From assembly GCA_965205675.1 (NCBI GenBank), contig OZ242186.1, positions 1,728,001 to 1,792,000 on the forward strand: a DNA stretch of 64,000 bases. Direction: 5' to 3'. The position numbers and the translations under genes were made by a program. Source of the DNA: Nitrosopumilus sp. Lineage in GTDB: Archaea > Thermoproteota > Nitrososphaeria > Nitrososphaerales > Nitrosopumilaceae. Within the stretch, counting starts at the first letter, position 1, and every line of letters starts with the position of its first letter. Of the stretch, positions 44,437 through 47,844 are shown piece after piece. Below the pieces are notes generated by a model that worked only from the letters and a program-made list of their open reading frames with translations, was not told where the DNA came from and did no database searches.

Positions 44437-44985
44437 ATGGCAGATTTACAAATACCAGAAGATTTTTGTCACAATGATGTTAAGCCAAAAGGCCAAACAA
44501 ATCATGCAGATGGTGAAAATTTTCACTATATCTGGGGTGACGGAAGATCAGACGGTGCCGCATTCTCAAACGACGATGTAAAAGCAGCTTATGAAGCAAA
44601 AGGAGAAACGCAAGTTCCTCTAGGAATTCATGGTACTACTGTTGCAGTCGATTGGGATTCATGTGTTGCAGCTGGTTCATGCATGAGTGTATGTCCAGTT
44701 CAAACATTCCAATGGTACAGAACTGAAAAAGATATTCCTGCAGACAAAGCTATGGGAGAAACTTTTGAAGGAACTGGCCTTACAGAACAAGACGAAAGAT
44801 TAGATTATACAGACAAATCACAACCAATCAGAGAACACGATTGTACAGTTTGTATGGCCTGTCAAGAAATTTGTCCTGAAGGAGCTATTCGTATAGAATC
44901 AGCTAACCAAGAATGGCACGAGAAAGCAGCCGGAACATATGTAATTATGAAATCTGGTTCTGAAAACCCACACGCACACGATTAA
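44437..44985 (+). CDS. Dicluster ferredoxin (Zfx-like), paralogue 2
   Basis: CVAAGSCMSVCP and CTVCMACQEICP. Confidence 0.92.
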   Translation: MADLQIPEDFCHNDVKPKGQTNHADGENFHYIWGDGRSDGAAFSNDDVKAAYEAKGETQVPLGIHGTTVAVDWDSCVAAGSCMSVCPVQTFQWYRTEKDIPADKAMGETFEGTGLTEQDERLDYTDKSQPIREHDCTVCMACQEICPEGAIRIESANQEWHEKAAGTYVIMKSGSENPHAHD

Positions 44986-44989
44986 AGAA

Positions 44990-45018
44990 ATTTTTTCTTT
45001 TTTCTTATTTTTCTATTT
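44990..45018 (+). terminator. Oligo-T terminator tract
   Basis: Long T-rich run immediately after the ferredoxin stop codon. Confidence 0.55.
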
Positions 45019-45058
45019 CACCTCAACAGATTTTAATCGCTACTATCCAATATTTTTT

Positions 45059-45142
45059 GCAGAGGTCGCCTAGCTCGGTAGGGCGCGGGCCTTGAGAGCC
45101 TGTGTGCGCAAGCATACGGGGGTTCAAATCCCTCTCTCTGCG
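45059..45142 (+). tRNA. tRNA-Ser(TGA)
   Basis: GCAGAGG acceptor, CGGGC-CT-TGA-GA-GCCTG arm, long variable arm, G discriminator. Confidence 0.93.
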
Positions 45143-45299
45143 TTTTCAATTTCCATTTTATTGAAATCTATTCTGAGAATTGCAGCTTAGAATTATTATT
45201 CGATAGGACTTGAAATAATAGAAAAATTCAATTCTGGTTATGAATAGATGATCATACCAGTTATTGCCATAGTTGTAATTATCCATGTGAATTGTTTTT

Positions 45300-45483
45300 A
45301 TACATTTCCTCTCTTTCTATACATCAGGGCATGGCTTTCGCTAGAGAATGGTTTCAATCAAAAGATGGCAGACATGTATCCATACGAGACTATTCTCTCA
45401 ATGCTATCTTCATCCTAGTTAGGATTGTTCGCAGTTATTAGACGAGGCCTTGTCCCTCAATAATTACAACGCGACTTGCAGTC
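45300..45483 (-). ncRNA. Candidate bridge/seek RNA of the IS110 element
   Basis: Stem-loop-stem fold whose loop GTTGTAATTAT is identical to flank 45272-45282; further matches to both element ends. Confidence 0.6.
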
Positions 45484-46477
45484 CTAACTATAATTTTGTA
45501 CAAATTCTCTCCTCTCCTTTAACATCCAATAAATCACCCTCAGGATCTTTGATGCACCAGCTACTGCAGCTTTGGATGATCCTCTTTTCTTTTTAATGCG
45601 ATTGTAAAATTTTGTAATGTCACTATCCTTGGCATGAATTGCATGAGTGTGTATGCATTCTGTTAGAACCCATCTCAATGTCATGCTTCCCCTTTTTGTT
45701 ATTCTGCCATGGTGTATTGTATCTGCAGAGTTTCTAACTGATGGTACAACTCCTGCATATGCACACAGTTTGTGAGAATCATTGAATCTCTCAATATCTG
45801 CAATCTCTGATGCAATGACAAGCGAAGAATAATGCCCAATTCCCGGAATCGAGTTTATCAAAATTGCATCAGGATTAACTTTTACAGCAGCATACACTTT
45901 GGAATTAATCTCTGCAATCTGTAAATTAAGGTGGCTGATTTGTTGCAAGAATCCGTCTATTCTGTAATCTCCTAGTGCCTTGAGTCTTCTGTTGTATGTT
46001 TCAGTGAATGTAACTCCTGGAATCCTGATTCCTTCCTGTAACAATATTCCATGAACTGAATTCTTGACAGATGTTCTCCATTGGATTAGTTTTTTCCTAT
46101 ATCTTACAAGCTGTCTTTGTTGTACAATCTTTTTGTCTGGAACATAACATGTGGCAATGTATCCTCCTCGTAAAAGATCTGCCAATATCTTGGCATCAAT
46201 CTTGTCTGTTTTCTTTTTTGATGTAGCAATTGCCTTTGTCAAATATGGGTTTGAGAGTGTGACGTTTTTGTATCCCAAAGTATCTGTGAGAAATCGATAC
46301 GTGTCATACCAGACTGATGAGGATTCCATTACAATATTTGCAGAAATTGGTATTTTTGCAAAATGCTTCCTGATAGATTCATGAGTGTTATCCACTTTGT
46401 CATTTTGTAATACTTTGCCTGCATCATCCATTTATTACTTGAAGAAACTTCTTGTGCAGGTCAATGCCCACAAACAT
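45484..46477 (-). pseudogene. IS110 transposase with frameshift after codon ~15
   Basis: MFVGIDLHKKFLQVI is out of frame with MDDAGK...VMES...KTDKIDA...SIPGIG...YAGVVPSVRNS. Confidence 0.85.
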
Positions 46478-46633
46478 GCCTTTCTTTGGTTTCTTCCTAA
46501 TCTGTTTGTTTGTAATCTTTTTTGGAGCCGAGTATTTACGAACCTTGGAACTAGATTCATTTTTTATGCTATCTGATTTCCTTGCTTTCTTATTCACATA
46601 TAGTTATTAGAATTATTAGTATATCATTTATTT

Positions 46634-47844
46634 GAGACTTGGGCATAATTAATTCTGATTTTTGAGTTATCTCTCAAATTATTCAAATGGAAAAAGCTAA
46701 AGATCAGCACATCGTGATATCATTGAAATGATAAAAGATGTACAAATCCCTAGGCAACATAAGGTATCAATCATTTCTTATTGGCGTGTTACATTTGGTT
46801 CATCATGCAGTCTGATATTTGTAGCGGCGATAGGTATCAATCATTTCTTATTGGCGTGTTACATTTGGTAGGGACATTATCTTTGTATGAAGATGTACTC
46901 AGAGTCGGTAGACCATACGTGTACTCCACCATTCAGATGATGCAATTGTGCATCGCAGGTCTTGGATGAGAATATCCAGCAACAATACACTATACTATTT
47001 TCTTTTGATTAAATCAACCAATCACAAATTACTCAAGGTTTGTAAATTACAGTAAATCCCAAACCGTAGAACAATTGACAGGCGATTTGAATTTCTACCA
47101 ATTAGTGACATGATTAGTACAATGGGCAACAAATTCATCTCAGATGGATTGGTGGAAAATATTTTAGTACTAGTTGATAGTTCCATGCTAAAAGCTGCTG
47201 AGTCCAGTATAGCAAAAATCAGACATTACACAAAATCGTTTGCCAATTGCAGGAATTGATACTGGTGCCAAAATAGGGTTTCTCCAAATACAAGGGTTGG
47301 ATATTTGGATACAAACTACACATAAGTTGTTCGGCTGGTAAATTGATTGTTCCTTTATCTGCTGATGTCTCAACTGCAAATGTTCATGACAATAAGATGT
47401 ATTGTGAAATAATCAAATCACTTGCAGGGCTGATAAGTAATGTCTTGTGTGATCCAGCATATGATGATGGTTCACTGTACCAGTTTAGCAGCAAGAAAAA
47501 TCTGAGATTGATTACTTCAGTTAAGATATACCCATCAACTCCTCCAGAGAGAATCAAACTTGCAGATTTTTATCATTCTGTGATTGGTCAAGAGTTGTAT
47601 TTGCAAAGAAAAATTTCAATTGAGCCCCTATTTCAAATATTCAAAGATGCATTTGATATCAGAACAGTCCCTGTGAAAGGATCAAATAACGTAGAATCAT
47701 TTGTGCTGATCTGCGTGCTTGTTTATCAGTTGGCAGTGTATTACAATTGTATTACTGGAGTAGAGAATCCAAGAATTGTCAAAAGAATGCTTTGTTGTTG
47801 AAATAATTTAAAACTATTTTTGTAAATCACTATGCCCAAATCTC
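46634..47844 (+). mobile_element. IS982/IS5-like DDE element (1211 bp) with TIR GAGA(C/T)TTGGGCATA, 8-bp TSD and pseudogenised transposase
   Basis: TSD ATTTATTT/ATTTATCT; GRPYVYS, GWIFGYKLH, CDPAYD, RKISIEPLF motifs across broken frames. Confidence 0.88.
46762..46869. repeat. 38-bp perfect direct repeat flanking a 32-bp unique insert
   Basis: AGGTATCAATCATTTCTTATTGGCGTGTTACATTTGGT at 46762-46799 and 46832-46869. Confidence 0.95.

Follow-up and report, generated by a model that had tools for sequence, protein, structure and literature searches.

A predicted two-domain guide RNA in the right end of a probable IS1111-type insertion sequence from an ammonia-oxidising archaeon

The window analysed here is a 64,000-nucleotide stretch of a Nitrosopumilus contig (OZ242186.1) that carries, on its minus strand, an IS110-family transposase gene followed by a non-coding region; the question raised by this locus is whether the non-coding region specifies an RNA that would direct the recombinase to its insertion site. 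A preliminary description of the window had proposed that the element is an archaeal member of the IS110 family, guided to its target by a non-coding RNA from its 3′ region, and in its testable parts (host, protein, target and guide covariation) this prediction agrees with what is read from the sequence. The element, named ISA, is very probably an IS1111-type member of the IS110 family with a right end encoding a predicted two-domain guide RNA (seekRNA or bridge RNA). The mechanism is already known from bacteria; ISA is considered a well-supported further member rather than a new kind. The host genome is archaeal, with an SSU rRNA match of 1467 bits and an archaeal amoA match of 386 bits (amoA being found in 0 of 14 control genomes), and has a G+C content of 33.7%. 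The features of the window copy are collected in Table 1.

Table 1. Features of the ISA copy in the window, by position and strand.
Feature	Position	Strand	Description or basis
Insertion sequence body, ISA	45282..46605	-	1324 nt + one T; copy and junction comparison
Left target flank CTAA, window copy	46607..46610	-	Junction comparison; identical to 5′ part of 3′ target-loop strand
Crossover T, left copy	46606	-	Sole base shared by the two junctions across the family
Left subterminal inverted repeat ATGTGAAT	46592..46599	-	Inverted copy of 45292-45285; 6 nt from crossover T
Left-end internal motif AGATAGCAT (+32 to +40)	46566..46574	-	Same sense as 5′ donor-loop strand; covaries with loop in relatives
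Transposase first 17 codons MFVGIDLHKKFLQVING, then stop	46424..46477	-	Cut off by frameshift near 46433
Transposase remainder, 315 codons, other frame	45484..46431	-	DEDD_Tnp_IS110 and Transposase_20 domains
Target-binding domain, predicted seekRNA/bridge RNA	45420..45486	-	Helix UAGGA/UCCUA from stop codon; outer stem UCGCG/UGCGA; hairpin UGAGG/CCUCG
Target loop 5′ strand UUGUAAUUAU + U45459	45460..45469	-	Complement of crossover T + right target AATTACAA
Target loop 3′ strand UCUAAUAAC	45434..45442	-	Same sense as left target + T + left end's first bases (handshake-like)
Donor-binding domain	45370..45415	-	Stem GGAUG/UGUCU around loop AAGAUAGCAU, hairpin UGAGA/UCUCG, loop UAUGGAUACA
Donor loop 3′ strand, AUGGAUA	45375..45384	-	Same sense as right-end tip ATGGA + T + A
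CUUUU run, conserved	45360..45364	-	Directly after donor domain; alignments
TATAAAAA, TATA-box-like, GAAA in front	45295..45302	-	13 nt before crossover; points outwards
Right subterminal inverted repeat ATTCACAT	45285..45292	-	3 nt from crossover T
Crossover T (45281) + right target flank AATTACA	45274..45281	-	In all 10 copies (AATTATA in 2) and uninterrupted sites

ISA is present in ten copies in the host genome, which are 98.6-100% identical and lie in differing contexts. Comparison of the ten copies' junctions with one another and with uninterrupted paralogous sites places the left end at 46605/46606, which is 25 nt further out than the end first claimed (46580). The non-coding ends measure 128 nt on the left (46605-46478) and 202 nt on the right (45483-45282); the subterminal inverted repeats of 8 bp are kept across relatives and lie within the 7-17 bp expected of IS1111 elements. 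Three uninterrupted paralogous sites (e1994, e1159 and e1629) read CCAAT/AATTACA, the slash marking the insertion point, and all ten copies are found at AATTA(C/T)A. A first junction model with the target AATAACT-AT-AATTACA had 0 exact sites in the genome, and was replaced by the one read from the uninterrupted sites. Insertion is site-specific and lacks a long target duplication, the ambiguity between empty and occupied sites being limited to the 4-nt ATAA. The proposed AT core would be compatible with this ATAA, found at each junction as well as in the empty site; family-wide the junctions (left, x-T-AAC(C/T)ATATGTG; right, CACAT(G/A)GA-T-flank) have just one T in common. In contigs from four DNA runs, the match ends at 45274 in X1 and X2 (two of the four), departs at 45279 in X3 and has no listed loose end in X4; the letters of X1 and X2 past 45274 are read as flanks of other ISA copies, and these contigs contain no joints, so neither an empty site nor a circle junction is found among them.

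The 315-aa ORF of the window copy matches PF01548 (DEDD_Tnp_IS110, N-terminal; 2.5e-19) and PF02371 (Transposase_20, C-terminal; 3.5e-21). The intact protein, whose 331-aa frame is uninterrupted in copies c1109 and c617, scores 229 bits against NF033542, 'IS110 family RNA-guided transposase' (cut-off 140). Among relatives of solved structure the recombinase matches ISCro4 (5.5e-12) and IS621 (2.7e-9), aligning with the latter over residues 2-322; a look-up in the ESM Atlas returned generic IS110 clusters only. By alignment to IS621, residues D6, E52, D92, D95 and S251 of the intact copies fall within the motifs GIDxxK, xEAT/ESS, KTDxxDA and S-G/S-A, and we take them to be the catalytic D-E-D-D residues and C-terminal serine. 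The C-terminal motif reads G-V-V-P-SVRN-S-A; compared with the IS1111 motif GL-P----S(T)G, the G, P and S are kept and an A stands instead of the G. In the window copy the frameshift after codon 16 removes D6 from the main frame, and this copy is therefore without a full recombinase; both of its ends and its RNA region are kept, and it would be mobilised in trans by the two intact copies.

The same frameshift is carried by eight of the ten copies, the other two being intact, which invites the reading that the ISA family is a decaying relic, with the window copy and most others dead and no present movement. Consistent with decay, the frameshift common to these eight removes the first presumed catalytic Asp, there are many truncated remnants, and five ISA copies are interrupted by another element 6 nt inside the left end; furthermore, perfect AATAATTACA 10-mers number 57 in the genome, of which 10 are the guide DNA of ISA itself and 47 are unoccupied, so that either the 10-mer alone is insufficient or activity is low. 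The copies are, however, at most 1.4% divergent in their differing contexts, two of them retain the intact frame with its motif residues, and the frameshifted variant occupies eight loci; the variant therefore spread after the frameshift arose. A relic is considered improbable on this balance, and the point bears on the present activity of ISA, not on its identity.

The right end is predicted to form a target-binding and a donor-binding domain, and it is the comparison of relatives that indicates this structure. A covariance model of the 3′ region, comprising five helices, finds 30 copies in the host genome and has matches in 18 of 151 genomes of the host's archaeal family, compared to 0 of 131 genomes when 33 further families of the phylum were sampled. 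In a MAFFT alignment of eight tails from the host genome the proportion of cells that pair is 93.5%, falling to 28-53% when the partners are slid, and six pairs are changed on both sides. Across 37 sequences from 18 genomes the values are 96.6% against 34-47%, with compensatory changes in 17 of 25 pairs; these sequences are fitted to the covariance model, alignments A3 and A4, fitted in this way, lean towards it, and the related elements are non-independent. In helix 1 (UAGGA/UCCUA) all five pairs have changes on both sides. The outer stem UCGCG/UGCGA (45474-45470 with 45433-45429) and inner stem GAGG/CCUC (45458-45455 with 45447-45444) of the preliminary description are present in the sequence, and both show compensatory changes in relatives. 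Two other pairings have to be redrawn: the stem AGAGAAU/AUUCUCU, given as the second domain, is not retained in relatives, and its 5′ half belongs to the hairpin UGAGA/UCUCG, which shows compensatory changes; the short hairpin UCCUA..UAGGA is unconserved, its UCCUA pairing with the UAGGA at the stop codon to form helix 1. Folded by itself, the tail reaches a minimum free energy no better than that of shuffles (z = 0.69), therefore the structural evidence is comparative, not thermodynamic. An Rfam search of 44500-47500 at permissive thresholds has only tRNA above the gathering score, and nothing overlaps 45283-45486.

The conserved secondary structure places the guides in internal loops. Target loops are hypervariable (column entropy 1.5-1.9 bits), with 32 distinct sequences in 37 copies, each with its own flanks; donor loops are conserved (about 0.7 bits). 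The CUUUU run following the donor domain is possibly an archaeal terminator or the 3′ end of the RNA. The columns of TATAAAAA are 90-99% A/T across 46 distinct right ends, and this box is a candidate junction or outward promoter.

In the first internal loop, UUGUAAUUAUU on the 5′ side complements the target sequence that spans the insertion point, and CUAAUAACU on the 3′ side is a repeat of the left flank and the element's first bases. As previously described, GTTGTAATTAT at 45470-45460 (minus) is identical at 11 of 11 positions to the plus strand at 45272-45282; with the flanks rejoined as in uninterrupted sites the complementary run is 12 nt, a length that only 1 of 3000 shuffled versions of the 204-nt tail (dinucleotide shuffling) attains. 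For the right loop only four of six flank bases had been thought to match; instead, UCUAAUAACU agrees with the left junction TCTAAT/AACT (46611-46602; slash as above) at every base of a 10-nt run, a length reached in 20 of 3000 shuffles. On a chance reading, the matches would be fortuitous similarities among A/T-rich sequences and the 3′ region a mere untranslated tail; in its favour are the G+C content of 33.7%, shuffled tails that still average 6-nt runs against the flanks, and the free energy of the tail, which is, as noted, unremarkable. Chance is nevertheless extremely improbable in view of the 12-nt and 10-nt runs being reached jointly in 0 of 3000 shuffles, the five helices that still pair via compensatory changes, and the joint variation of loops and flanks, both in further elements and in further genomes.

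This covariation of loop and flank, for which the preliminary description had suggested a test, is seen across 29 distinct elements and in two other genomes, the target loops tracking their own flanks. For the 5′ target-loop strand the mean longest complementary run is 5.38 against its own right flank and 3.44 against the flanks of other elements (0 of 20000 permutations); a run of at least 7 nt is present for 10 of 29 own pairs, against 4 of 812 other pairs. The own-flank run is shorter than 7 nt in 19 of the 29 distinct elements, some having only 2-4 nt, which decayed copies, shifted registers or misplaced ends could explain; in the G080 family the loop-flank match is shifted 3 nt outward. 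For the 3′ target-loop strand, anchored on the T, the mean against its own left flank is 3.70 versus 1.36 (0 of 20000; n = 20), and the base before the T agrees with the left flank in 19 of 20. The pattern recurs in independent families of several copies: in G044, 13 entries have the reverse-complemented loop ATGCA(T/C)AAGA or a near variant (ATGCATAAAA, ATGCATACGA, ATGTACAAGA and one containing N) beside flanks T-AT(G/A)CA(T/C)A, and in G019, TATACTGCGC adjoins T-ATACTGCGG in three of four entries, with L089 one base short.

In 28 of 33 distinct pairs the variable bases of the donor-loop 3′ strand agree with the right end of the same element, and the TATCCAT/ATGGATA match first reported is found in the window at 45383-45377 and 45286-45280. 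The companion match of AGATAGCAT is likewise present at 45409-45401 and 46574-46566, but the second of these positions is not a junction as had been supposed, lying 32-40 nt inside the left end. Complementarity between the 5′ donor-loop strand and the left-end tip extends over only 4-6 nt, and a search within ISA, ISB (a sibling element discussed below) and ISC for a reverse-complement partner of this strand gave none that was consistent. The atypical donor-loop geometry proposed earlier is right in spirit and wrong in its stated reason: the right-end guide adjoins the crossover as expected, and it is the other strand that copies the internal left-end site. On another reading, these same-sense copies of the right-end tip and of the left-end internal motif would be protein sites present in repeat, the 3′ region acting as DNA, in the form of recombinase sites or a folded single strand, while the protein picks the target and the matches reflect similarity between ends and targets. 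Compensatory base-pair changes, which indicate a folded single strand, and hypervariable loop strands matching opposite strands of a target that lies outside the element argue against it; close homologues of the same layout were shown in PMC11187229 to depend on an RNA that is purified along with the transposase. The DNA reading is considered highly unlikely, and a guide RNA remains the preferred interpretation.

A sibling element in the host genome, ISB, lies 6 nt inside the left end of ISA or ISC copies in nine of nine complete cases. The target loops of ISB spell its own insertion site, AACTA-T-ATGTGAA, and ISB is therefore another IS1111-type element aimed at the end of a mobile element; its targets are the ends of its own close relatives, which gives tandem IS-IS composites. 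It is conceivable, though doubtful, that the 5′ donor-loop strand, rather than reading crossover-adjacent bases, guides the bottom strand 32-40 bp inside the left end, as a distant form of donor recognition, and that ISB is programmed into the left ends of its siblings with the composites spreading as units. If true, donor recognition at a distance would be a geometry not described for IS621 or ISEc11, and together with ISB targeting of siblings would amount to RNA-guided competition or hitch-hiking between insertion sequences.

From these features a mechanism may be proposed. Once transcribed and processed, the RNA would pair through its target-loop 5′ strand with top-strand target bases that begin at the crossover T and extend into the right flank (T-AATTACAA), and through the 3′ strand, which has the sense of the left flank and T, with the bottom strand; the 3′ strand continues as AAC(U), the bases with which the left end opens, resembling the handshake guides of IS621. 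The donor-loop 3′ strand carries the sense of the right-end tip (AUGGA-U-A). ISA would be excised as a circle joining right end, T and left end, with the expected junction ...CACATGGA-T-AACTATATG..., and the recombinase-RNA complex would recombine this junction with the target N-AAT/AATTACA.

According to Siddiquee et al. 2024 (PMC11187229), IS1111-type seekRNAs are encoded in a non-coding region downstream of the gene in elements with subterminal inverted repeats, the top-strand match lies 5′ of the bottom-strand match and overlaps it, and the IS1111 group is defined by a transposase of 330-350 aa with a GL-P----S(T)G motif. With ISEc11, ISPa11 and ISKpn4 of that study, ISA shares the DEDD transposase (331 aa versus ~330-350), the longer non-coding region downstream of the gene, the subterminal inverted repeats, the overlapping matches of the predicted RNA with the top-strand complement 5′ of the bottom-strand complement, and natural re-programming among relatives, where stems are conserved and loops changed. 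ISA differs from these elements by its ammonia-oxidising archaeal host, an RNA predicted from sequence, covariance model matches confined to the host's family, and the motif G-V-V-P-x4-S-A rather than GL-P-x4-S(T)G. The IS621 bridge RNA (Durrant et al. 2024, PMC11208160; Hiraizumi et al. 2026, PMC13626964; PDB 8wt6) similarly has two domains; one internal loop binds the target and another the donor, each reading opposite strands either side of the crossover, and additional bases (the handshake guides) match the partner DNA after strand exchange. Unlike IS621, the ISA RNA is in the right end rather than the left and the order of strand matches is reversed; the family junctions have only one T in common instead of a CT dinucleotide, and the left-end side of the donor loop has no clear complement of the crossover-adjacent bases, being the same-sense copy of the internal site. 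In the literature searched no paper links bridge RNAs or IS1111 to the archaeal group of the host, although the supplementary tables of PMC11208160 and PMC11187229 may list such elements. The best match to the protein among 72,556 plasmid records is a haloarchaeal IS110-family transposase, encoded on the megaplasmid NZ_CP034941.1 of Halorubrum ezzemoulense and 37% identical across 98% of the protein, whose 3′ non-coding stretch of at most ~140 nt is different from and shorter than that of ISA; as a carrier of the RNA this relative was rejected, model R1 finding nothing real (best E = 0.78, inside a neighbouring gene).

RNA-guided IS110/IS1111 recombinases are under development as programmable DNA-insertion tools, and to our knowledge nearly all of those tested are bacterial. 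ISA offers a compact system, of 331 aa and a predicted RNA of ~130 nt, from a mesophilic ammonia-oxidising archaeon; its natural series of re-programmed guides with their flanks is the kind of data from which targeting rules can be learned. The finding also accounts for some of the repeat pattern in these genomes, where copies lie at one short motif and one element is always inside the end of another.

ISA, the IS110/IS1111-type insertion sequence of the window, is a real, well-delimited IS1111-type RNA-guided element in an archaeon, of a kind already known; the preliminary description is supported in its reading of an RNA-guided archaeal element of the IS110 type, while its left boundary and second RNA domain are replaced here. 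The host genome is a single 2.01 Mb contig with an archaeal SSU rRNA (1467 bits) and an archaeal amoA (386 bits; 0/14 control genomes matched in the same search), and the host is therefore an ammonia-oxidising archaeon, as had been assumed. Ten full ISA copies with 98.6-100% identity are present in this genome, besides many fragments and diverged relatives. The right end of all ten reads ...TTCACATGGAT-AATTA(C/T)A; on the left side, five are preceded by ...AATAACT and the other five directly abut a related element at its right end. Several copies lie within repeats, which made it possible to identify paralogous sites without an insertion: e1994 reads ...TTTTTTCCAAT|AATTACATAAAATTAG..., and e1159 and e1629 read ...AAATCCAAT|AATTACAATTGA..., so the occupied form is CCAAT-AACTATATGTGAAT...TTCACATGGA-T-AATTACA. 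Four bases, ATAA, are common to both junctions and the empty site, and the crossover therefore cannot be placed from ISA alone; across relatives a single T is the only base at both junctions (left, x-T-AAC(C/T)ATATGTG; right, CACAT(G/A)GA-T-flank). The right boundary proposed earlier is correct, and the left end lies 25 nt further out than the proposed 46580. Among contig sets from other DNA runs, the X1 and X2 matches end at 45274 with different letters beyond, which are read here as flanks of other ISA copies; X3 diverges at 45279, and X4 has no loose end listed there. Perfect AATAATTACA sites still unoccupied in the host genome number 47.

Features of ISA and its surroundings (window positions)
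Feature	Position	Strand	Basis or remark
ISA body	46605 to 45282	minus	junction comparison; T at 46606 and 45281
Left subterminal inverted repeat, 8 bp, ATGTGAAT	46599-46592	minus	
Right subterminal inverted repeat, 8 bp, ATTCACAT	45292-45285	minus	
Transposase start, 17 codons, MFVGIDLHKKFLQVING	46477-46424	minus	ORF reading
Transposase remainder, 315-codon ORF	46431-45484	minus	Pfam DEDD_Tnp_IS110 and Transposase_20
Left-end box CAAACAAACAGATTA	46491-46512	minus	~20-45 nt upstream of start codon
Right-end box GAAA..TTTA(A/T)AAA	45295-45310	minus	ends ~13 nt before crossover
Direct repeat, ~38 nt, two copies 60 nt apart, CCAAATGTAACACGCCAATAAGAAATGATTGATACCT	46771-46868	minus	left of ISA
tRNA-Ser (anticodon UGA)	45058-45143	plus	131 nt beyond ISA right end
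Two paralogous adjacent ORFs, 169 and 182 aa	43821-44330, 44437-44985	plus	upstream of tRNA-Ser

The IS110-family gene of the window copy is broken in two by a frameshift; the frame is lost after codon 16 through a 2-nt difference common to eight of the ten ISA copies. The copies c1109 and c617 encode an intact 331-aa protein, P0001, in which D6, E52, D92, D95 and S251 are located in conserved motifs. As the frameshifted variant occupies eight loci, its spread postdates the frameshift, and these copies presumably moved in trans; experiments on ISA need no frameshift repair.

By free energy the 204-nt tail does not outperform its shuffles (z = 0.69), and no Rfam family matches it; the comparative evidence for a predicted RNA structure is strong. 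Aligned together with the tails of the sibling elements ISB and ISC, diverged tails of the host genome (identities from 95% to 66%) show conserved stems and changing loops. Five helices were derived by RNAalifold and our own reading: UAGGA with UCCUA, the former beginning at the stop codon; UCGCG with UGCGA; the hairpin UGAGG/CCUCG; GGAUG with UGUCU; and the hairpin UGAGA/UCUCG. In a MAFFT alignment of eight tails 93.5% of cells pair, compared to 28-53% with the 3' partners slid by 1-3 columns. R1, the covariance model built from this alignment, matches 30 copies in the host genome and 18/151 genomes (8/27 genera) of a same-family sample; in a phylum-wide sample it matches 3/19 genomes of its own family and 0/131 across 33 other families. 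Among 37 matches fitted to R1, an alignment that leans towards the model, 96.6% of cells pair (34-47% when slid) and 17/25 pairs show both-sided changes. Of the features proposed earlier, neither the AGAGAAU/AUUCUCU stem of the second domain nor the short hairpin is conserved among relatives. Across the ten ISA copies the RNA region is nearly invariant; the tail has four variable columns, one differing in three copies and the remaining three in a single copy each, all downstream of the modelled helices. Each of the two similar modules of the predicted RNA combines a small hairpin with an outer stem and an internal loop.

The first module is predicted to bind the target. Its 5' loop strand, UUGUAAUUAUU, is perfectly complementary to AAT-AATTACAA, a stretch that begins with the final left-target bases and continues through the T into the right target; in the window copy this run is 12 nt, a length reached in 1/3000 shuffles. 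The 3' loop strand UCUAAUAACU reads in the same sense as TCTAAT of the left flank and then AACT, with which the element begins; the preliminary description gave this match as 4/6, which is too low, as the run is 10 nt (equalled in 20/3000 shuffles). Both runs jointly occurred in 0/3000. Covariation of loop and insertion flank, proposed earlier as a check on homologues, was found in a set of 29 elements whose loops are distinct: at its longest, the run of complementarity between 5' strand and right flank averages 5.38 for the element's own flank and 3.44 for those of others (0/20000 permutations), and runs of at least 7 occur in 10/29 own pairs and 4/812 other pairs. Own-flank runs fall below 7 in 19/29 elements, some only 2-4, and these misses are real. 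The 3' strand anchored at T matches its own left flank over a mean of 3.70 nt versus 1.36 (0/20000, n = 20); the base preceding T agrees in 19/20. Two further genomes provide independent multi-copy replicates. In G044, 13 rows carry the reverse-complemented loop ATGCA(T/C)AAGA or a near variant beside flanks T-AT(G/A)CA(T/C)A; in G019, loop AAGTCTAACC adjoins T-A(A/C)GGTCTAAT and variants, and TATACTGCGC adjoins T-ATACTGCGG in 3/4 rows, with locus L089 one base short. Column entropy is 1.5-1.9 bits in the first-module loop, 0.0-1.2 bits in the U-A-A(C) that follows, and about 0.7 bits in the second-module loops, as would be expected of a first module that reads variable targets and a second that reads conserved element ends.

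The 3' strand of the second, predicted donor-binding module, AAU(G/A)G(A/G)UA, corresponds in sense to CAT(G/A)G(A/G)-T-A, the tip of the right end; in 28/33 distinct pairs the strand's variable bases equal the element's own right end. By symmetry, complementarity to the left-end tip was expected of the 5' strand (AAGAUAGCAU), but the match extends over 4-6 nt only (AUAG/CTAT in ISA, AUGGU/ACCAT elsewhere). This strand is a same-sense copy of a left-end motif at positions +32 to +40, AGATAGCAT in ISA and AGATGGTAC, ATGGTGC, AGATGGTTG, ATGGCAA, AAGGTTG or AGATGATTG in other elements. It covaries with this motif (own 6.94, others 5.76; 0/10000 permutations), and where tip and motif conflict the loop tracks the motif; no consistent reverse-complement partner was found inside the elements. 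The leading idea is that the strand would guide the RNA to the internal site by reading its bottom strand. Of the "atypical donor-loop geometry" proposed earlier, this copying of the left-end site is what remains.

The right-end box is conserved across 46 distinct right ends and is directed outward; it looks like an archaeal BRE/TATA promoter, and such a putative promoter would drive transcription over the circle junction towards the left end, or else into flanking DNA or a tandem element located downstream. A second conserved box, CAAACAAACAGATTA, is exact in 10/16 left ends of relatives, with near variants in 5 more and absence in locus L061; it could be a promoter or an operator.

ISB is a ~1.34 kb element with 76% identity to ISA over part of the gene and the same RNA architecture. 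It adjoins ISA copy c997 (L010:162-1500 and L010:1501-2828), and the arrangement recurs at G000:C1 about 441792, 928664, 1502500 and 1666191. All nine complete ISB copies lie 6 nt inside a left end, that of an ISA copy or remnant in eight and of ISC in one; the left flank is invariably TAAC(T/C)AT, and this site, AACTA-T-ATGTGAA, can be read in the target loops of ISB (reverse complement AATGTGAAAA; AAACUAU-AAC). ISA copies c441, c928, c1666, c1502 and c997 bear ISB; the window copy, c202, c815, c1109 and c617 are solo. The five ISB-bearing copies have six common base differences (element positions 106, 109, 112, 227, 232 and 233) absent from the solo copies; either ISB and ISA travel together as a composite, or ISB struck one sub-lineage only. 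Upstream of c441, the ISB copy is itself split by a further element of ~990 nt (G000:C1:442702-443691; at least 8 copies, 99.4-99.9% identity).

A high-copy repeat ending ...ATTACGCAAGAGGTCTAAT lies in the left flank of c1109 (G000:C1:1109375-1109524) and 72 other places; of the 73 matches listed, 13 other than the query locus itself share 97-100% identity across ~122-133 nt. The related ATGCATAAGGTCTAAT is targeted in G019 and G044 by two different RNA-guided-family elements at two different positions. The ISA insertion is not within the tRNA-Ser gene, and the paralogous ORFs beside that gene carry Cys-rich ferredoxin-like motifs.

Siddiquee et al. 2024 (PMC11187229) describe IS1111-type elements as having a transposase of 330-350 aa, a non-coding region downstream of it and inverted repeats in subterminal position. 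The seekRNA of these elements is 70-100 nt (long form 145-170 nt), its top-strand match lies 5' of, and overlaps, the bottom-strand match, and natural re-direction occurs between relatives; ISA shares all of these layout features. For 93% of the IS1111 elements in ISfinder, Durrant et al. 2024 (PMC11208160) predicted a bridge RNA located in the right end, and for many of these they noted donor-binding nucleotides within multi-loops. The AAC(U) following the left-target guide of ISA resembles the handshake guides defined by Hiraizumi et al. 2026 (PMC13626964). Archaeal IS110 recombinases are counted at 662 in a preprint (10.1101/2024.06.21.599552). No paper was found for "bridge RNA" with Thaumarchaeota or IS1111 with Nitrososphaer*, though supplementary tables may list such elements; an archaeal IS survey among the IS110 and Nitrosopumilus literature leaves bridge RNA unmentioned in the portion available. 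The closest plasmid-borne relative is haloarchaeal (37% identity), and its 3' end differs from that of ISA. The left-end internal motif and the targeting of one insertion sequence by another, as seen for ISB, are worth pursuing.
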